A stretch of 64,000 bases of DNA from Candidatus Levyibacteriota bacterium (GTDB lineage Bacteria; Patescibacteriota; Microgenomatia; Levybacterales; UBA12049). Of this stretch, positions 28-53,121 are shown piece by piece. The stretch spans positions 4,112-68,111 of the forward strand of contig JACPLF010000003.1 of assembly GCA_016186645.1 (NCBI GenBank), in the 5' to 3' direction. Both the position numbers and the translations under genes were made by a program. The notes below the pieces were generated by a model. That model saw only the letters and a list, made by a program, of their open reading frames with translations. It was not told the origin of the DNA and made no database searches. How positions within the stretch are numbered: the stretch's first letter is position 1; each line of letters opens with the position of its first letter.

Positions 28-393
28 ATGGACGGCAGGGCGCAAGATGTTGTTGCGGAGTTTGGCCAGAAAAAATTTGGCGCAGAATTCCCGGATACAA
101 TAACAGAAGCAGGATTGGTTGGAAAATTGGTTCAAGAGAACATAGATCAAGGCTTGATTGATTCAATTAAAAATAAACTTGATATATCTCTTCAAAAGCA
201 TCATTCAAAAGGAATTATAGTTCACGGCCACCAAGAATGCGCAGGAAATCCAGTTAGCGATGAAAAGCATAAAGACGATATCCGAAAATCTGTTCGAGTG
301 ATTCAATCGCTTGTTAATTTTTCTCCAATTGTTGGGGTCTTTGTAAAACGCTTTTCAAAGAATCCTTCCAAATGGGAAATCGAAGAAGTATAA
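28..393 (+). CDS. hypothetical protein (121 aa) with an HGHQECAGNP motif; function unknown
   Basis: ORF track; lies upstream of folC; no family recognised. Confidence 0.35.
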   Translation: MDGRAQDVVAEFGQKKFGAEFPDTITEAGLVGKLVQENIDQGLIDSIKNKLDISLQKHHSKGIIVHGHQECAGNPVSDEKHKDDIRKSVRVIQSLVNFSPIVGVFVKRFSKNPSKWEIEEV

Positions 394-400
394 TACTCCC

Positions 401-1957
401 ATGAACATTACAAGCTATGAAGAGGCGATAAATTATCTGGAAGGATTTATTGGGAAAGTTGTTTTTAAAATCAACAAAGAGTTTTTGAAAAAGCGTGACC
501 CCTTGCAGAGGATGAGAATTCTGCTTTCACTTCTTGGAAATCCGCAGGAGAAGTTTAGATCAGTTTTGGTTGGGGGGACATCTGGAAAAGGGTCAACTGC
601 TTATTTAATTTCCCATATCCTAACAGTTGCTGGTTACAAAACAGGATTCACGGTTTCTCCGCATCTTCAGAAAGTTAATGAGAGGCTTCAGATAAATAAC
701 AAGTCAATTTCTAACGAGAACTTTTTAATATTGTTCAAAAGTATAATACTACCAAGTATTAGACAAATGTCAAAAATGGAAGTTGGCCCGCCGTCGTATT
801 TTGAAATTTTGGTTGCAATGGGGTTTAAACATTTTGCAGATCAAAAAGTGGATATTGCAGTTGCGGAGGTTGGGATGGGAGGAGAGTTTGACGCAACAAA
901 TACCTTAAATCCATTGATTGCAGTTCTTACAAATGTGGGATTGGATCACACCAATATTTTGGGAAAAACTGTTTCGAAAATCGCGCGAACCAAAGCTGGC
1001 ATAATTAAAACTGGCGCCACCCCTTTGGTAGTTGTGTCGGGGGTAAGGCAGCCGACGGTTATTAAGATTGTTGAAGATAGATGCAGAAAAGTGGGGGCAA
1101 AGCTCAATTTATTGTGGAGGAATTTTGGATATAAAATAAAAAAGATAAACCATGAAGGATCAGTTTTCGATTTAACAGTATCAAGCGGCCGCGGGCTACA
1201 GTTAAATGATTTGAGCTTGTCTTTTTTGGGAGATTATCAAGTTGAGAATGCGTCGCTGGCAATTAAAACAATTCTAGAACTTAGAGAATTAGGATTTTCC
1301 CACAACGCTCGCGCTTCGAGGGACAAGAAAATTTCAGACAGTGCAATTAGAAAAGCCTTAAAAACATCCTTTTTCCCGGGAAGATTCGAGGTGATTCATG
1401 TCGCTCAACAACCGCGCGTTTCAGATGACGCTCGGCAAACTGATTCAAATCCTTCTCCCAACTCGGCCTCGCTAAGTAAAAGTCGGCTCCAATCAAGAAC
1501 CCAGCCGACTTTTAGTTCATCTGAAAGCGGATTGTCTCGCTCCAACCATACGCTCATTTTAGATAGCGCGCATAATCCGACAAAAATGCGTGCGTTTTTG
1601 GCAACGCTTAAAAAACTTTATCCAAAAGAGAAAAAAGTTTTTCTTGTAGGATTTAAATTTGACAAAGACATACAAAAAATGCTCAAGCAAATTATAAAAG
1701 TTGCGGACGAAATTATCATCACAGAGTTTAATAGGGCAACAGATATGAATTTACACGCGTCTGCTGACGCAGAAAGTATTAAGTATCAAGTATTAAGTAT
1801 CAAGTATTCGGGAAAAATAATTGTTGAAAAGGATTCAAAAAAAGCACTGAAAATAGGAATTAAAACAATTCAACAATTTAACAATGAAACAATTTTAGTG
1901 GTTACGGGGTCTTTGTATTTGGTTGGTGAAATTAGAGGGTTATTGACAAAGTTTTAA
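401..1957 (+). CDS. folC: folylpolyglutamate synthase / dihydrofolate synthase (Mur ligase family)
   Basis: VGGTSGKGST P-loop and VGLDHTNILG motifs typical of FolC/Mur ligases. Carries GC-rich low-complexity inserts (1302-1322 and about 1420-1560). Confidence 0.85.
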   Translation: MNITSYEEAINYLEGFIGKVVFKINKEFLKKRDPLQRMRILLSLLGNPQEKFRSVLVGGTSGKGSTAYLISHILTVAGYKTGFTVSPHLQKVNERLQINNKSISNENFLILFKSIILPSIRQMSKMEVGPPSYFEILVAMGFKHFADQKVDIAVAEVGMGGEFDATNTLNPLIAVLTNVGLDHTNILGKTVSKIARTKAGIIKTGATPLVVVSGVRQPTVIKIVEDRCRKVGAKLNLLWRNFGYKIKKINHEGSVFDLTVSSGRGLQLNDLSLSFLGDYQVENASLAIKTILELRELGFSHNARASRDKKISDSAIRKALKTSFFPGRFEVIHVAQQPRVSDDARQTDSNPSPNSASLSKSRLQSRTQPTFSSSESGLSRSNHTLILDSAHNPTKMRAFLATLKKLYPKEKKVFLVGFKFDKDIQKMLKQIIKVADEIIITEFNRATDMNLHASADAESIKYQVLSIKYSGKIIVEKDSKKALKIGIKTIQQFNNETILVVTGSLYLVGEIRGLLTKF

Positions 1958-12003: not shown

Positions 12004-12071
12004 GCTTATATTCTAACACTCTGATTTTTATCCCTGTCCCGACGAATCGGGAAATAATCAGAGGAGGATAA

Positions 12072-12142
12072 CCCGCCTAAGCTTGCTTTGCAGCTTTTCA
12101 GTATTATTCATACACGCTGCAAAGAGCGCTTTAGCGGCGGGT
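12072..12142. repeat. CCGCCTAAG...CTTTAGCGGCGG palindromic element (family 2), copy in the rpsB 5' leader
   Basis: Arms cccgcctaagc and gctttagcggcggg, with an inner gctttgcagc/gctgcaaagagc hairpin. Homologous copies at 23554-23614 and 23768-23910. Confidence 0.6.
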
Positions 12143-12154
12143 AAAGGGAGAAAT

Positions 12155-23537: not shown

Positions 23538-23553
23538 GAAGTTCCCGCCTAAG

Positions 23554-23614
23554 CTTACCGTTCGAACACGTCAGACGTGTTTCATGGAGCGCTTTAGCGG
23601 CGGGCAAGTAGTTT
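23554..23614. repeat. family 2 palindromic element, copy b
   Basis: cccgcctaagctt...gcgctttagcggcggg with an inner aacacgtcagacgtgtt hairpin. Confidence 0.6.
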
Positions 23615-48211: not shown

Positions 48212-48607
48212 TCACAACAGTTTCAAAAAGTTTTTTGGGGAGATGATTTTTGTTTTTTTATAATTTCCAAGTTTCAATACCAGTTTGTCTCCGCTTATTA
48301 AATAATCTGCTGTGGATTCCTCTGCCAGCTCCAAAAGAAAATTGTCCTGGGGATCTTTGCATATGGAAATCTTCTTTTTGGGAATAAATTTTTCGGTATT
48401 GATATCTAATGCTTCTTCAATGATTTTCAACGATTGATTTGATAAGAAAAATTTATTTTTTAGTTTGCTGATAATCTCTGTTTTCAACTCCGGTGATAGG
48501 CAGAATATGTATTTTTTATTTATCCATGCTTCAATTATTTTCCGGGGATTTCCGCCAAATAAAAAACCCGAAATAAATACATTCGTATCTACGACAACTT
48601 TATGCAT
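48212..48607 (-). CDS. PIN-domain protein (toxin of a Phd/PIN pair)
   Basis: VVVDTNVFISG...LISGDKLVL. Confidence 0.75.
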   Translation of the reverse strand: MHKVVVDTNVFISGFLFGGNPRKIIEAWINKKYIFCLSPELKTEIISKLKNKFFLSNQSLKIIEEALDINTEKFIPKKKISICKDPQDNFLLELAEESTADYLISGDKLVLKLGNYKKTKIISPKNFLKLL

Positions 48608-48863
48608 TTTTTATGATCGAGTAGGCATCCTTTTCAAAGCGGGGAGTACGTAGTGATTTTTTTCTAAGATATTGTTTAAATTTTTTCTCTCCTTCACGGA
48701 AAATTTCTTTGAATTTGAGTTGAAAAAGCTGGTCGTAGGGATAGACAACTACAGAAGGATTGCTGTCTTGTACTATAACAACAGGTTCTTTTGTAGCTTT
48801 TATTTGCTCAATAAGCTTTGCCAGGCTATTCCTCGCATCGGTAATACTTATGATCTGTAACAT
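48600..48863 (-). CDS. Phd/YefM-family antitoxin
   Basis: ISITDARNSLAKLIEQIKATKEPVVIV. Minus-strand TTGACA-N17-TATAAT promoter (48896-48901 and 48873-48878) 9 nt before this ATG. Confidence 0.7.
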   Translation of the reverse strand: MLQIISITDARNSLAKLIEQIKATKEPVVIVQDSNPSVVVYPYDQLFQLKFKEIFREGEKKFKQYLRKKSLRTPRFEKDAYSIIKNA

Positions 48864-48943
48864 ACATAGTACATTATATGGTACATTATGCGTTTTGTCA
48901 AGCGGCATTTTTAAATTCCAAAATTTTGCTATAATCTTCTGAT

Positions 48944-50059
48944 ATGAATTTGAGCGTTGGAATTATAGGGTTACCTAACGTTGGGAAAAGTACTTTGTTT
49001 AATGCGCTGCTGAAAAAACAGCAAGCATTTGTTGCGAATTATCCTTTTGCAACAATTGAGCCAAATGTTGGGATAGTGCCGGTGCCGGATGAACGTCTAA
49101 ATAAATTAGCGGAAATTACAAAAATTGAGGCAAAAATGTCAGAACTTCCGCCCATTAAACCCGCGACAGTGAATTTTGTAGATATTGCAGGTTTGGTAAA
49201 AGGCGCTAGTGAAGGCGCGGGGTTGGGAAATAAATTTTTGTCCCACATCAGGGAGGTTTCGATAATCGCTCATGTAGTCCGTGCGTTTGAGGATCCTAAT
49301 ATTATTCGGGAAGGAAGTGTTGGTCCAAAGGAAGATTATGAAGCGATCGAAACGGAGCTCATTCTGGCGGATCTACAAACTATCGAAGCCGCGCAAAGCC
49401 GCGTTAAAAGATTTGCAAGAGAAACGGAAAAATCAGCAATTGAAAAATTGTTTAAAGGTCTTAATGAAGGAAAACCGGCAAGAGAAATTATTTTAACACC
49501 GGAGGAGCAAGAATTTGCCAAAACATTTTTTCTTCTTTCTGGTAAACTCGAATTAATTGTATTAAACGTCGAGGAAAAAGATTATAACGAAAAATCAATC
49601 GAAGCGATTACTCAAAAATATAAGGAGATGCTGAAACAAGTTCAGCATGACAACGAAGAAAATATAGTTGTAATTTGCGCAAAGATCGAGTCGGACCTAT
49701 CGGAATTGTCAGAGGCAGAGCAGAAAGAATATCTGCAAGGATTGGGATTAAAAACTTCGGGGCTTGAAAGACTTATTCAAAAAGCATATCAGACATTGGG
49801 ATTAATTTCGTTTTTAACAGCAGGTGAAAAAGAAGTGCGTGCTTGGACCATTGAAAAAGGCATTAAAGCAGTTGATGCGGCCGGCGTAATTCACACGGAT
49901 TTTACAAAAAACTTTATAAAAGCAGAAGTTGTTGCATGCGAAGACTTTATAGGTTTAGGGGGTTGGAAAAAATCAAGAGAGTTAGGAAAAGCGTGCCTTG
50001 AAGGCCGGGATTACATCATGCAAGACGGAGATGTGGTTGAATTTAAAATTGGATCTTAA
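48944..50059 (+). CDS. ychF: ribosome-binding ATPase YchF
   Basis: GLPNVGKSTLFNAL..., TGS domain at the C-terminus. TGCTATAAT at 48927-48935. Confidence 0.9.
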   Translation: MNLSVGIIGLPNVGKSTLFNALLKKQQAFVANYPFATIEPNVGIVPVPDERLNKLAEITKIEAKMSELPPIKPATVNFVDIAGLVKGASEGAGLGNKFLSHIREVSIIAHVVRAFEDPNIIREGSVGPKEDYEAIETELILADLQTIEAAQSRVKRFARETEKSAIEKLFKGLNEGKPAREIILTPEEQEFAKTFFLLSGKLELIVLNVEEKDYNEKSIEAITQKYKEMLKQVQHDNEENIVVICAKIESDLSELSEAEQKEYLQGLGLKTSGLERLIQKAYQTLGLISFLTAGEKEVRAWTIEKGIKAVDAAGVIHTDFTKNFIKAEVVACEDFIGLGGWKKSRELGKACLEGRDYIMQDGDVVEFKIGS

Positions 50060-50071
50060 GCTTTACTGCAG

Positions 50072-50530
50072 TTAGCTTTCGCGAGGAATTTCTCGAACAG
50101 CTCTTCCTTGTAGCGAAGAGGGTGAGGGATTAAGTTTTGCACCAACTGGTGCAAATTCTTGTGGAGGCGCATCATCATTTTCAACTCTGAAAGTTACTTC
50201 TCTTTTTCCATTTTTAGCTTTGAACGTAACTGAATTATCTCCATTTGGGAATATCGGAAAGCTACGCATCTGGTTGGGAACAACTTGTATCTTTTCACCG
50301 GATGCGTTGTATATTTCTATTGGCTTTTTTCCTATCCATACTACTACAACTGCTGAGTGGCCGACTTCTTCGACTTGGACGTCTGCGACTTGTATCTCGC
50401 CGAACATAGGGTCATTGATGATTACTCTGCTTTTGTCAAACACTACGTTTCCCCTTTTAATAATAATGGGTTCTTTCGTCTTTTGCCAAAAGTGTCCTGT
50501 TGGTCTTTCAATTGTTTCAGATACCACCAT
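50072..50530 (-). CDS. hypothetical protein (152 aa) inside a small insertion at the ychF 3' end
   Basis: ORF track. Flanked by ychF terminus copies at 50015-50059 and 50565-50608. Confidence 0.45.
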   Translation of the reverse strand: MVVSETIERPTGHFWQKTKEPIIIKRGNVVFDKSRVIINDPMFGEIQVADVQVEEVGHSAVVVVWIGKKPIEIYNASGEKIQVVPNQMRSFPIFPNGDNSVTFKAKNGKREVTFRVENDDAPPQEFAPVGAKLNPSPSSLQGRAVREIPRES

Positions 50531-50564
50531 ATCCCATACTTGGATTGTAGATCAAAAAAATTCT

Positions 50565-50608
50565 TAATGCAAGATGGGGAAGTAGTTGAGTTTAAAATCG
50601 GGCGCTAA
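50565..50608 (+). other. diverged duplicate of the ychF 3' terminus (encodes LMQDGEVVEFKIGR-stop)
   Basis: About 70% nucleotide and 11/13 aa identity to the ychF end at 50015-50059. Confidence 0.6.
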
Positions 50609-50673
50609 TTATCTATAAATTTCTACCTTTGGACTATTGACAAAATTACCCGATCGGAGGAAAATGTCTGTAG

Positions 50674-51306
50674 ATGGACAATGACAAAATAGACCAATTA
50701 GCAAAAATATTAGTTCGTAAAATAGATAAAGAAGTTTTTGAGAGAAAATATGCGCCCGTTAAAACAATCCTGAAGCTCGTTGGCGCCGGAGCGTTTTTAA
50801 TGGCTGCTATGATTATGCCAGGTTTGCCTTTGGCGCTCAAGCCATTTATGGATGAAAAAAGAAAAGAAGAGTATGAAGTCTGGAAGAGATTTAATATACC
50901 TTATCTAAAAAGAACGCTATTGAGATTGGAAAAGCAAAAGTTAGTTGAAATAGCAGATGAAGACAGTAGGCAAGTTGTTAAGATTACCAATCAAGGAAAA
51001 CAAAAAATTATTAAGATGGCACTGGATGAACTTACTGTTGAAAAACCGAAAATATGGGACGGAAAATGGAGACTTGTTAGTTTTGATTTACCTGAAACTA
51101 AGGCTCAACAAAGAAAAAGATTCGTAGAGTATTTGAGCGTGTGGGGGTTTTACCCCCTACATAAAAGTGTTTATTTACATGCTTATCCTTGTTTTAAGCA
51201 AGTAGAGTTTCTGAGAGAATATATGAATGTTGGAGAGTACGTCAGGAATTTTACCGTATCTAAAATAGAAAACGATAAATTATTCAAAGATTTTTTTGGA
51301 GTCTAG
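50674..51306 (+). CDS. hypothetical 210-aa protein with a Cas2/VapD-like (PaaX-like) segment; flanked by about 30-bp direct repeats
   Basis: WRLVSFDLPETKAQQRKRFVEYLSVWGFYPLHKSVY follows the Cas2 beta-alpha-beta pattern. Repeats at 50637-50668 and 51310-51342 share AATTACCCGATCGG. Confidence 0.4.
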   Translation: MDNDKIDQLAKILVRKIDKEVFERKYAPVKTILKLVGAGAFLMAAMIMPGLPLALKPFMDEKRKEEYEVWKRFNIPYLKRTLLRLEKQKLVEIADEDSRQVVKITNQGKQKIIKMALDELTVEKPKIWDGKWRLVSFDLPETKAQQRKRFVEYLSVWGFYPLHKSVYLHAYPCFKQVEFLREYMNVGEYVRNFTVSKIENDKLFKDFFGV

Positions 51307-51444
51307 CTCTGGACAGAATTACCCGATCGGCGAAATTTGTCCAGATTGAAGATATTTAATTTAATTAAAGATATTTGTAAAATATAAATATAGCTGTATG
51401 AATATAAGCGTAAGTGTAAAATGTGATTTGGGAAAATATAAACT

Positions 51445-52149
51445 GTGAATATGATAGATAAACTTAGAAAAGAGATTAAGAAAGCGGCAGATCCTAAGAA
51501 GGCGGAAGTTTCGCAGAGGTTTTTCAAGACAGGGAGGGGAGAATATGCGGAAGGGGATGTATTTTTAGGAATCACAGTTCCGGAGTCTCGCAAAATTGCA
51601 ATTAAGTTTAAAGATATTTCTTTTACCGAAATTGTTAAGCTTCTCAGATCAAAAATTCATGAAGAAAGATTAATTGCGCTTCTGGTCCTCGTTAATAATT
51701 TTAATATGGGTGATGAAAAGATGCAGGAAAAGATTTATAAATTTTATCTGAAAAATATAAAATATATAAATAACTGGGATTTTGTTGATTTGTCCGCGGA
51801 TAAAATAGTAGGCGGCTATTTGATTAGAAAACAAAAGGATATATTATTTAGACTAGCAAAATCGAAAAATATTTGGAAAAGAAGAATTTCAATAATTGCA
51901 ACTTATTATTTCATTAAAAACAATAAGTTTGAGGAAACCTTAAAAATTTCAGAGATTTTACTTTTTGATAACCATGATTTAATCCAAAAAGCAGTTGGAT
52001 GGATGCTTAGAGAAGTCGGCAATAGGGATTTGAAAATGGAAATTGGGTTTTTGAATAAACATTACAAAAAAATGCCCCGCACCATGCTTCGCTACGCCAT
52101 CGAAAAATTCCCTAAGAAGCATAGAATGTTATATTTGAAGAGAAATTGA
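51445..52149 (+). CDS. alkD: DNA alkylation repair enzyme (AlkD/HEAT-repeat family)
   Basis: Tandem HEAT-like helical repeats consistent with the AlkD family fold. Confidence 0.7.
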   Translation: MNMIDKLRKEIKKAADPKKAEVSQRFFKTGRGEYAEGDVFLGITVPESRKIAIKFKDISFTEIVKLLRSKIHEERLIALLVLVNNFNMGDEKMQEKIYKFYLKNIKYINNWDFVDLSADKIVGGYLIRKQKDILFRLAKSKNIWKRRISIIATYYFIKNNKFEETLKISEILLFDNHDLIQKAVGWMLREVGNRDLKMEIGFLNKHYKKMPRTMLRYAIEKFPKKHRMLYLKRN

Positions 52150-52197
52150 GCTTTTAAGCCTTGCTTTTTGGGCTGAAAATGTGCTAGGATTGTTTCG

Positions 52198-52473
52198 ATG
52201 AGATCATACGAATTGATTTTGGTCACAAAAACGTCTTTAACTGATACTTTGAGGAAAAAACTAATTGCAGGAGTAAAAATCTTGTTAAAAGACTTAAAAA
52301 TTGTAAAAGAGAATGAAATAGGGCAAAAAACCTTGGCTTACAAGATAAAAAGAGAAGCGAACGGATTTTATTGGGATTTTGCAATGGAGGGGGAAAAAAT
52401 CCCAGCGGATTTTGAGAAAAAACTTTTGGAAAACGACAATATTTTAAGACACTTATTGCTGAGAACTAAATAA
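52198..52473 (+). CDS. rpsF: 30S ribosomal protein S6
   Basis: MRSYELILV...; conserved gene order with ssb and rpsR. Confidence 0.8.
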   Translation: MRSYELILVTKTSLTDTLRKKLIAGVKILLKDLKIVKENEIGQKTLAYKIKREANGFYWDFAMEGEKIPADFEKKLLENDNILRHLLLRTK

Positions 52474-52479
52474 GATATA

Positions 52480-52596
52480 TTGAAGTTGGATAGTCGGATA
52501 TTCTTGATCTTGAACTCTTGAATTCTTGAGATCAAGACATCAAAGATTCAAAATCAAAGACGTCAGGAATATCTAGCATCAAAAATTCTAAATTTT
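52480..52596. repeat. family 3 palindromic intergenic element, copy B, directly upstream of ssb
   Basis: tcttgaattcttgagatcaaga...ttcaaaatcaaagacgtcaggaatatcta. Confidence 0.6.
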
Positions 52597-53121
52597 ATGG
52601 CGCGAAGTCTGAATAAGGTACAATTGATTGGAAATTTGACACGAGATCCGGAACTCCGATATACACCAAACGGCACAGCTGTTTGTAGCTTTGGTTTGGC
52701 TACCAACAGAAGCTGGAAGACAGACAGCGGAGAGAAGCACGATGAAGCAGAGTTTCACAATATTGTTTCATGGAACAAATTAGCCGAGTTGTGCAGTCAA
52801 TTTTTGGTTAAGGGCAGAAAAATATATGTTGAAGGAAGGCTTGCAACAAGAACTTGGACGGGGCAGGATGGAGCACAAAGAAACAAAACCGAAATTGTGA
52901 TCTCAGACATGATACTTTTGGATTCAAGAAGACCGGAAGGGGAAATTGAGAGTCAGCCGGCTGTTCCGGTCAAAAGTGAGGAGACAAAGGAGACAAAAGT
53001 GACAGAGGAGCCAGAGAAAGAAACGAAAAAAGTTTTAGCGGGAGAAGAAAAGAAACCAAAAGTAGAAAAAGTTGCGGAGGCGCCTGCGGAAGAGGTTGTT
53101 CCGGATGATATACCTTTCTAA
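52597..53121 (+). CDS. ssb: single-stranded DNA-binding protein
   Basis: OB fold and the C-terminal DDIPF tail. Confidence 0.9.
   Translation: MARSLNKVQLIGNLTRDPELRYTPNGTAVCSFGLATNRSWKTDSGEKHDEAEFHNIVSWNKLAELCSQFLVKGRKIYVEGRLATRTWTGQDGAQRNKTEIVISDMILLDSRRPEGEIESQPAVPVKSEETKETKVTEEPEKETKKVLAGEEKKPKVEKVAEAPAEEVVPDDIPF

Follow-up and report, generated by a model that had tools for sequence, protein, structure and literature searches.

In the window analysed here, 64,000 nt of Candidatus Levyibacteriota bacterium (GCA_016186645.1, JACPLF010000003.1 positions 4,112-68,111, forward strand), ychF is followed by a single gene, geneX, and then by a second, diverged copy of its own 3′ end (Table 1). 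The explanation we favor, at a probability of about 0.5, is that DNA is added repeatedly by recombination anchored in ychF, its far end being joined illegitimately. This resembles homology-facilitated illegitimate recombination (HFIR), in which one homologous anchor and one illegitimate join add foreign DNA (PMC3240628). Under this model, 50060-50564 would be a one-gene insertion that split the last ~15 codons from the body of ychF; it would have brought the ychF 3′ end of a diverged relative, which now completes the gene, and the native tail would have been shifted downstream as a non-functional scar beside a toxin-gene relic. The donor would be a related genome already carrying ychF plus cargo, with homologous recombination within conserved ychF and an illegitimate join of the donor's far end inside the recipient ychF tail, a process that would require no dedicated integrase. 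The same event would recur where ychF meets rpsF in Microgenomates (CPR), with every insertion adjoining the ychF body; as each would supply a fresh tail and leave the previous one as a scar, arrays of up to 3-4 tails would result.

Table 1. Features of the ychF locus in the window (coordinates in window positions) and contents of occupied ychF sites in related genomes.
Feature	Position	Strand	Description
ychF	48944..50059	+	Redox-regulated ATPase/GTPase YchF, intact; 371-aa ORF
Functional ychF tail	50018..50059	+	MQDGDVVEFKIGS and stop; putative replacement terminus brought by the insert
Spacer	50060..50071		12 nt, ychF stop to geneX stop; conserved left junction of the geneX cassette
geneX	50072..50530	−	152-aa orphan protein; insertion cargo
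Candidate geneX promoter	50544..50572	−	Putative −35 TTGCAT (50572-50567), 17-nt spacer, putative −10 TACAAT (50549-50544)
Scar	50565..50608	+	LMQDGEVVEFKIGR and in-frame stop; displaced ancestral ychF tail; tail-profile and pattern matches
Toxin-gene relic	50609..50623	−	3′ end of a YafQ-like toxin gene (..EIYR and stop), ancestral convergent neighbor of ychF
Palindromic motif, two copies	50634-50668, 51307-51341		35 nt, flanking the PaaX-like gene; repeat and palindrome search
PaaX-like regulator gene	50674-51306	+	Pfam PaaX_M
DNA alkylation repair gene, rpsF, ssb	51445..53121	+	Conserved right-hand neighbors; Pfam DNA_alkylation for the first
L023			Cargo: 95-aa protein
L027			Cargo: SoFic
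L120			Cargo: 526-aa protein
L088			Cargo: sigma-70 and 232-aa protein
L096			Cargo: AAA ATPase and 94-aa protein
L093			Cargo: 248-aa protein and others
L084			Three tails
L103			Three to four tails

The host gene encodes a protein with the Pfam domains of YchF (Obg-like) ATPases, MMR_HSR1 (E 2.6e-24) and YchF-GTPase_C (E 7.3e-34). The latter is matched over its full length (residues 287-369, profile positions 1-83 of 84), and the protein, which ends in IMQDGDVVEFKIGS, is 77-82% identical to Levybacteria YchF proteins. The distal tail is matched by an nhmmer tail profile (E 4.4e-7, model positions 38-80), and a repeat search pairs 50018-50052 with 50567-50601 at 83% identity. Since the two tails are 76% identical over 42 nt (ATG to stop) and ~73% identical over 45 nt, the initial estimate of about 70% nucleotide identity was fair. 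Their 10 nucleotide differences are distributed 1/1/8 over codon positions 1/2/3, and the longest identical runs are 8 nt (ATGCAAGA and TTTAAAAT), a length that could in principle serve a tyrosine recombinase. A codon-degenerate pattern of tail and stop matches the window at the two tails only and has no match in 100 shuffles, ruling out chance similarity. Logan assemblies of three runs (L081-L083) independently show the same arrangement, which excludes an assembly artefact of a single MAG; the Logan contigs also contain assembly breaks inside the 3′ part of ychF.

The flanks of the two tails indicate which is old and which is new. The 15 nt following the scar (TTATCTATAAATTTC) are identical to the toxin 3′ end behind the scar of L096 and near-identical to those in L103 and L104. 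Judged by this right-hand neighbor, which also adjoins ychF tails in those three genomes, the distal copy is the ancestral native tail, displaced. The proximal tail and the spacer behind it (containing GGATCTTAAGCTT) are common to the pseudo-tail adjoining geneX in L085 and to tail 2 of L084, and the tail-spacer-geneX junction is kept in all three loci, with spacers ctgcagtaaagc in the window, ctgtagtaaaagc in L084 and ctgcattataagc in L085. From this co-inheritance we infer that the proximal, functional tail arrived together with geneX. Tail and cargo also travel together in the toxin-antitoxin (TA) cassette, where the stop of the ychF tail lies 0-2 nt from the toxin stop in the window, L096, L103 and L104. 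The original prediction of an insertion at 50060-50564 that delivers one 152-aa gene is borne out, and its proposal that the insert brings a substitute ychF terminus agrees with the co-inheritance of tail and 12-nt spacer with geneX. The prediction was also exposed to two objections, that relatives might carry identical duplicates or that the second copy might belong to a longer real gene. Relatives carry diverged copies, and the only ORF across the second tail (50357-50608) is antisense to geneX and YchF-like in its last 14 residues only.

GeneX is a fast-evolving orphan. An exhaustive HMMER search found only two homologues (51% and 42% identical, 151 and 147 aa), giving a family of three known members at the geneX loci of the window, L084 and L085, with dN/dS values of 0.42-0.50 measured against the window copy. 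Sequence searches of Pfam, PHROG, NCBIfam, PADLOC and PDB returned no match for geneX, and its all-beta AlphaFold model (pLDDT 55) has no fold match in PDB by Foldseek; a weak match was found to P0004, a 606-aa repeat protein (E 2.6e-4). Convergent to ychF, geneX is probably transcribed from a promoter whose −35 element lies within the scar. On the opposite strand, the candidate −35 hexamer reads as the scar's Met-Gln codons. Both hexamers and their spacing are kept in 3/3 geneX loci; the candidate −35 has 3/6 consensus bases and the candidate promoter is absent from the promoter-scan list.

To the right of the toxin-gene relic, the PaaX-like gene with its palindromes (50634..51341) adds to what is lineage-specific in the ychF-rpsF hotspot. 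The gene order ychF-(alkylation repair)-rpsF-ssb is repeated in relatives, and in five of them the alkylation-repair gene overlaps the ychF stop, in place of PaaX-type content.

Scars of the ychF tail were found in ~12 Microgenomates genomes, with 1-3 scars per genome, and among 1392 ORFs tested recurrent tail scars were confined to ychF. The cargo beside the scars is varied (geneX, a toxin-antitoxin pair, SoFic, a sigma factor, an AAA ATPase), mostly antisense and equipped with its own upstream regions. In L088, the cargo sigma factor and the sigma gene behind the scar are homologues at 43% identity and have the same 6-nt spacer, as expected if a relative's syntenic segment was inserted. Four genomes contain a highly conserved 73-nt hairpin element at scar position −27; neither this element nor the insert contains a tRNA or an Rfam RNA.

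The pattern of substitution indicates that the tail copies are diverged coding sequences. Every scar keeps an in-frame stop, often a stop codon unlike that of the partner tail, and the 93 differences between 10 tail pairs from 9 genomes are distributed 16/15/62 over codon positions 1/2/3, a statistic that is partly biased because most scars were located by peptide or profile similarity. The scars adjoining the 73-nt element in L103 and L084, which were located independently of scar sequence, differ from each other at 9/9 third positions and 0/18 others. A direct repeat would arise most simply if the ychF 3′ end had been duplicated in tandem on the spot, for example by slippage or unequal crossing-over, with the copies diverging later and geneX inserting independently, and one 20-nt stretch is identical between the L096 tails. 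However, substitutions in a neutral scar should fall on every codon position, and both third-position patterns, the retained stops and the occurrence of the proximal tail at other geneX loci make such a duplication very improbable.

Junction positions were compared across events. The old-tail junction, at the left end of the scar, spans about −20 to −66. At its right junction the TA cassette meets a −25 scar in L103 but a −44 pseudo-tail in L085, and it has no scar there in L096. The right-hand tail of the L085 geneX cassette is cut after 11 nt and followed by unrelated DNA. Such variable far-end joins are what an HFIR-like process would leave. The geneX scar is constant in length (~45 nt in the window, L084 and L085). 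Junctions also cluster at −44/−45 (the geneX junction of the window, L084 and L085, the TA cassette of L085, the tail 1-tail 2 junctions of L084, L103 and L105, and L120) and at about −25 to −30, near −27 (L088, L096, L093, L103), which hints at some site preference, unexpected under plain HFIR. Published HFIR events usually delete recipient DNA and do not duplicate it, which also counts against an HFIR reading.

These clusters bear on a second, less likely explanation, in which the insert is a decayed or non-autonomous site-specific element, of the e14/phage 21-icd type or a CIME-like satellite, and a recombinase encoded elsewhere recognizes the ychF 3′ end. Its attP would carry a ychF-like tail, attL would complete the gene, attR would be the scar, and the integrase would have been lost or would act in trans. 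The architecture fits, with direct repeats from the 3′ end of the target gene, likewise found in ~12 related genomes, the gene completed by the proximal copy and its native fragment displaced to the distal end. Events recur at one gene with junctions near −44 and −27, the geneX and TA cassettes are ordered differently in the window and L085, and cargo such as the TA pair and SoFic is typical of mobile elements. On the other side, geneX has no family match, individual scans of 10 cargo proteins taken from five other occupied sites showed neither integrase nor transposase, and the 25 commonest families listed for 100 hotspot ORFs include no integrase, resolvase or transposase. The only transposase in any geneX or hotspot locus belongs to an unrelated IS in L085. 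Two scans of viral contigs for an attP carrying the ychF tail gave only chance matches inside unrelated ORFs, and a phage or plasmid attP of this kind was rejected. Junctions are inconstant even for the same cassette, and identical runs reach at most 8 nt in the window pair and only ~2-4 nt in that of L105. Because genomes differ in this tail at almost all third codon positions, it would be a poor substrate for a sequence-specific recombinase. We favor HFIR-like recombination because the scanned cargo lacks an integrase, the junctions vary and no long identical core is present; the suggestion in the original prediction of a remnant of an integrase-type element is, on the same grounds, unsupported.

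Direct traces of the proposed event were sought in relatives. Comparison with related ychF loci, as originally proposed, recovered diverged tails but no empty-site allele among relatives, none of which is closer than ~82% amino-acid identity. Exact look-ups of the window YchF and PaaX-like proteins returned the same arrangement or nothing, and no donor sequence was found; with neither a donor nor an empty-site allele, a homologous left crossover is invisible. A sliding-window nearest-neighbor test for mosaicism of ychF has no resolving power, since the best relatives are only ~75% identical in nucleotides. The ychF-associated att sites of pneumococci in the literature are intergenic and upstream of ychF, and were set aside as not comparable.

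An enzyme-free, self-propagating array is a weaker candidate still. Here a cassette would loop out by RecA between two tails, and the resulting circle with one tail would be taken up and integrate Campbell-style through short homology with the ychF tail of a new cell. This would give the observed topology, multi-tail arrays exist, the scar is of constant length (~45 nt) in the geneX family, and at 27-66 nt the scars are about as short as RecA pairing allows. Yet within-genome tails are only 59-83% identical, too little similarity for RecA to exchange 27-45 nt efficiently, the truncated right-hand tail of the L085 geneX cassette looks illegitimate, and circular forms are not known.

CPR bacteria have tiny genomes with few recognizable mobile elements, and their acquisition of accessory genes is poorly understood. 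The ychF loci provide a concrete, recurrent route of gene gain beside a highly conserved gene, and because each addition leaves a datable scar in the displaced tail, the sequence itself records which gene came first. Should no integrase be involved, the loci would show from nature that uncultivated bacteria build accessory islets by homology-anchored illegitimate recombination; should an enzyme drive the process, they would point to an undescribed site-specific system. In practical terms, the scars provide a simple marker of recently acquired genes, such as SoFic-type defense genes and toxin-antitoxin pairs, in metagenome-assembled genomes.

Several known systems resemble the ychF loci in part. 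For e14 and phage 21 at the icd 3′ end of E. coli, PMC13626634 (citing Hill et al. 1989) describes a substitute terminus that keeps the gene functional and a displaced native 3′ fragment, the icdC pseudogene, and states that the icd copies around e14 differ mostly by conservative or synonymous changes. The ychF insert likewise lies in the 3′ end of a conserved coding gene, with a replacement terminus and a displaced native end. Whereas e14, a prophage of 15 kb, encodes an integrase and excises upon SOS induction, the ychF insert comprises ~0.5 kb, one gene and no recombinase, its scar is 44 nt, junctions vary and the site is repeatedly occupied with unrelated cargo. The CIME derivatives of ICESt1/ICESt3 at the fda 3′ end of Streptococcus thermophilus contain no integrase and are bounded by att copies; their tandem accretion gives att arrays with an identical core, mobilized by the integrase of a related ICE. 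The ychF inserts share with them the lack of an integrase, the gene-3′-end repeats and the tandem arrays at one site, but no identical core, ICE or integrase was found at ychF.

As in HFIR during natural transformation of Acinetobacter baylyi, Streptococcus pneumoniae and Pseudomonas stutzeri, the ychF loci combine an anchor, here ychF, with a variable join nearby, and DNA is gained without an element-encoded enzyme. Unlike in experimental HFIR, which usually replaces or deletes recipient DNA, the join lies within the end of the anchor itself and 20-66 nt are duplicated, and the process is read from scars only. A further, doubtful reading, slightly less probable than the self-propagating array, is that the Microgenomates ychF 3′ end is the attachment site of an integron-like cassette capture that uses the end of a protein-coding gene. 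Single-gene cassettes, among them defense genes, toxin-antitoxin pairs and orphans like geneX, would be shuffled from genome to genome by a recombinase or a structured-DNA mechanism encoded away from the array, and the 73-nt hairpin element might be part of the machinery. Unlike integrons, the ychF arrays show no IntI among visible matches and no attC hairpins; their repeats are coding tails and not palindromes, they vary at synonymous sites, and the cargo genes are driven by promoters of their own and mostly point the other way. What the ychF arrays share with integrons and with island arrays at tRNA and tmRNA genes is serial insertion, with the newest arrival nearest the anchor and a short repeat between single-gene cargo.

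The window comes from a Candidatus Levybacteria genome (CPR, Microgenomates) and carries an intact ychF, whose functional terminus reads ...RDYIMQDGDVVEFKIGS and stop, followed by a small convergent gene (geneX) and a second copy of the ychF tail. The two tail copies are 83% identical over 35 nt in a repeat search, and a codon-degenerate pattern of the tail plus stop matches these two window sites only (0 in 100 shuffles). The distal copy is also recovered by a nucleotide profile of CPR ychF tails (E 4.4e-7), and the tail-geneX-tail arrangement is identical in three independent Logan assemblies.

Features of the window and of relatives' ychF or geneX loci (L-numbers)
Feature	Location	Strand	Description
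ychF	window 48944-50059	+	intact; GTPase domain and full-length YchF C-terminal domain
geneX	window 50072-50530	-	152-aa ORF convergent to ychF; 12 bases between ychF end and geneX end
Second ychF tail	window 50565-50608	+	LMQDGEVVEFKIGR and stop; in-frame; 34 bases beyond geneX start codon
Toxin-end flank	window 50609-50623		directly 3' of distal stop
PIN-domain toxin and Phd/YefM antitoxin	window 48212-48908	-	immediately upstream of ychF
35-nt motif	window 50634-50668, 51307-51341		two copies
73-nt element relatives	window 12068-12148, 23540-23612		covariance model
73-nt element	L105 5104-5214
73-nt element	L103 5104-5214
73-nt element	L084 570-684	-
73-nt element	L093/L094 7985-8086
ORF of 73-nt element and scar	L105 5101-5214
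SoFic-type Fic/HTH protein	L027 3114-4121		between functional tail and scar; PADLOC E 5.6e-53
Sigma-70 genes	L088 5111-6676, 7506-8945		convergent
IS	L085 ~36-1112		rve-type transposase (333 aa)

The window tails differ at 10 positions over 42 nt (ATG to stop), 8 of which are third codon positions and the remaining two both in the last sense codon. In-situ decay of a duplicated tail is disfavoured, as this third-position bias is not the pattern expected of it. The bias implies that the two copies diverged while serving as genuine gene ends in separate lineages. The 15 nt directly 3' of the distal stop (TTATCTATAAATTTC) are, in L096, the last codons (..HEIYR and stop) of a convergent YafQ-like toxin gene that follows a ychF-tail scar, and in L103 and L104 this toxin gene, adjoining a ychF tail, ends in near-identical sequence. 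Because these three loci have the toxin-end flank in common, the distal copy and its flank represent the ancestral junction of ychF tail and toxin; in the window, a PaaX-like gene later replaced most of the toxin-antitoxin (TA) pair. The proximal tail and its 12-nt spacer (..GGATCTTAAGCTTTACTGCAG) are common to the window and to the tails beside geneX in L084 and L085, the L085 one being a pseudo-tail that carries an internal stop. Since tail and spacer co-occur with geneX, the functional terminus arrived together with geneX, and the new tail is proximal and the old one distal. The duplicated tail around geneX of the original prediction is confirmed by the repeat pairing, degenerate pattern, profile and assemblies, and its replacement terminus, brought by insertion, holds on the toxin-end flank and the tail-spacer-geneX junction.

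In NCBI the geneX protein is a hypothetical protein of a Levybacteria MAG, and Pfam, PHROGs, NCBIfam, PADLOC and PDB sequences gave no match to it. Exhaustive HMMER searching across 1.8 billion representatives recovered only two relatives, P0002 (51% identical, 151 aa) and P0003 (42% identical, 147 aa). All three proteins can be aligned over their full length, with conservation of motifs at both termini. The dN/dS values are 0.42-0.50 against the window copy and 1.27 for L084 versus L085. geneX looks like a real but fast-evolving gene, with possible decay of the copy in L085. A low-confidence AlphaFold model (pLDDT 55) is all-beta apart from a proline-rich, disordered tail and gave no fold match. 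Upstream of geneX, all three loci have TTGCAT, 17 nt and then TACAAT or TATAAT, a plausible candidate promoter with a weak −35 that the promoter scan did not list; TTGCAT is the reverse complement of the scar's Met-Gln codons.

Insertions at this place recur among 165 ychF loci drawn from collections of genomes and metagenomes. Many CPR genomes have rpsF-ssb-rpsR directly 3' of ychF, and five Levybacteria relatives have an alkylation-repair gene overlapping the stop of ychF; elsewhere the ychF/rpsF gap varies greatly. In peptide, nucleotide-motif and profile scans, 100% of extra tails 3' of ychF lie on the same strand with an in-frame stop. Between functional tail and scar we find a 95-aa protein (L023, Daviesbacteria), a 526-aa protein (L120), a sigma-70 factor and a 232-aa protein (L088), an AAA ATPase and a 94-aa protein (L096), and the SoFic-type protein of L027, which belongs to an anti-phage defence family by PADLOC, so that the hotspot also collects defence genes. 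Other loci have two scars (L093/L094), three tails (L084), three to four tails (L103), a second tail split by a 73-nt element (L105), a short hairpin and then a scar (L114), or a probable scar adjoining the toxin gene (L104). When the last 14 residues of each ORF were searched against 3 kb downstream, recurrent tail copies were found for ychF only, among 1392 ORFs tested. Ten functional/scar pairs retain their stop codons, often of changed type, and hold 93 nucleotide differences (16/15/62 at codon positions 1/2/3), a bias partly due to ascertainment, since most scars came from searches for similarity to a coding profile. The scars next to the 73-nt element were found without use of the scar sequence itself. 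They have the same codon-position pattern, and the L103 and L084 scars differ at 9/9 third positions and 0/18 others.

Recombinase genes are absent from the cargo examined, with no integrase, resolvase or transposase in 10 cargo proteins scanned individually (five occupied sites) or among the 25 commonest families for 100 hotspot ORFs. The earlier reading of 50060-50564 is retained as an insertion with a replacement terminus, whereas its integrative-element remnant finds no support. The only transposase seen belongs to an IS cutting the right-hand scar in L085, and the ychF tail was on no viral contig in viral-contig scans. This IS, which has TGTCYAGGACCT as its inverted ends and apparently duplicated a 5-bp target (CCGCC), interrupts the geneX cassette's right-hand scar after 11 nt.

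Left junctions are constant, running tail, 12-nt spacer and geneX stop in the geneX cassette and tail stop, 0-2 nt and toxin stop in the TA cassette. The right junction of one cassette type varies by genome: the TA cassette meets a scar at −25 in L103 (positions within the ychF tail), a pseudo-tail at −44 in L085 and the promoter of the alkylation-repair gene in L096, and the geneX cassette in L085 stops after 11 nt of tail. Constant left and variable right junctions suggest a homologous join at one end and an illegitimate one at the other. The two L088 sigma-70 genes, one inserted and one resident behind the scar, are 43% identical and each follows a ychF tail and 6-nt spacer; the inserted one was apparently imported together with the 232-aa gene, in keeping with insertion of a diverged relative's syntenic segment. 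Relative to the window, L085 has the geneX and TA cassettes in the opposite order, so at least one was acquired independently at the same place.

Together, the junctions, the L088 sigma homologue and the reversed cassette order fit homology-facilitated illegitimate recombination (HFIR, as defined in PMC3240628), and ychF-anchored additive recombination is our best explanation (probability about 0.5). Recombination would use homology at the ychF end and join illegitimately at the far end, within the terminal 20-66 nt of the recipient's gene, and each event would add a new tail and the donor's first cassette 5' of the recipient's old tail. We infer the homologous crossover inside ychF and the way in which the DNA entered. 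Relatives' ychF loci and look-ups yielded no empty-site allele, and the closest ychF relatives are ~75% identical in nucleotides, a distance at which a mosaic test for a donor tract is without power.

The main rival, a site-specific, CIME-like element mobilised by a trans-acting recombinase, would give the same architecture and is in keeping with several independent junctions at ~−44/−45, just 5' of ATGCAAGAYGG, and several at −25 to −30, just 5' of GTNGTNGAR. A sequence-specific enzyme would, however, face a tail that varies at almost every third position between genomes, and some tail pairs have no identical run beyond a few bases; we consider this rival rather unlikely. Campbell-type integration of excised cassette circles, which we regard as more doubtful still, would also produce this architecture.

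Three genomes carry the 73-nt hairpin element (GACCCCACACAGTTTGCCGTTCGCC...GTGCGGGGCAAGT) exactly at −27 within a ychF-tail scar, and a fourth carries it next to one. The element is 96-99% identical across genomes with synonymously saturated ychF tails, has compensatory changes in 10/21 pairs and no Rfam match, and appears to be a dispersed structured repeat; its window relatives lie upstream of rpsB and just 3' of a HIT-family gene, where it is terminator-like. L114 has a shorter CCGCCTAAGCGG hairpin in the same place. In L105, L103 and L084, element and following scar form a 35-38-codon ORF (M..TPHSLPFAFSILFEYGSRSTLCGASVVEFKIG[AS] and stop) in frame into the old tail, starting at ATGGCG in L084/L103 and at an upstream ATG made by a 1-nt deletion in L105; its translation could be a reason for the synonymous-only scar changes.

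Around the window's ychF, the 35-nt motif copies are 80% identical inverted repeats (TGGACAnAATT...AAATTTGTCCA), one just 5' of the PaaX-like gene and one just 5' of the DNA alkylation repair gene, and are probably operator sites of the PaaX-like regulator. The PIN/Phd-YefM pair is unrelated to the YafQ-like/Phd pair whose relic is 3' of ychF. Logan contigs L169-L172 (SRR12113420/22/384/430) break repeatedly ~180 nt before the ychF stop and just 5' of the PaaX-like gene, which may reflect strain variation at the hotspot.

The ychF scars mark a clear and readily checked way for CPR genomes to gain genes, although the window's own instance is only a small scar beside an orphan gene. The nearest known parallel is e14 (and phage 21) at the icd 3' end in E. 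coli, where the prophage supplies the icd end and the native end, once displaced, survives as the icdC pseudogene with conservative changes (PMC13626634). The ychF locus has the same architecture but lacks the size of e14, an integrase in the cargo examined and, apparently, a fixed att core; excision is demonstrated for e14. Repeated insertion of unrelated single-gene cargo and arrays of several scars are further features of the ychF locus. CIMEs and ICESt1 undergo accretion at fda; this accretion and integron arrays may be taken as analogies to the ychF scars, not as memberships.
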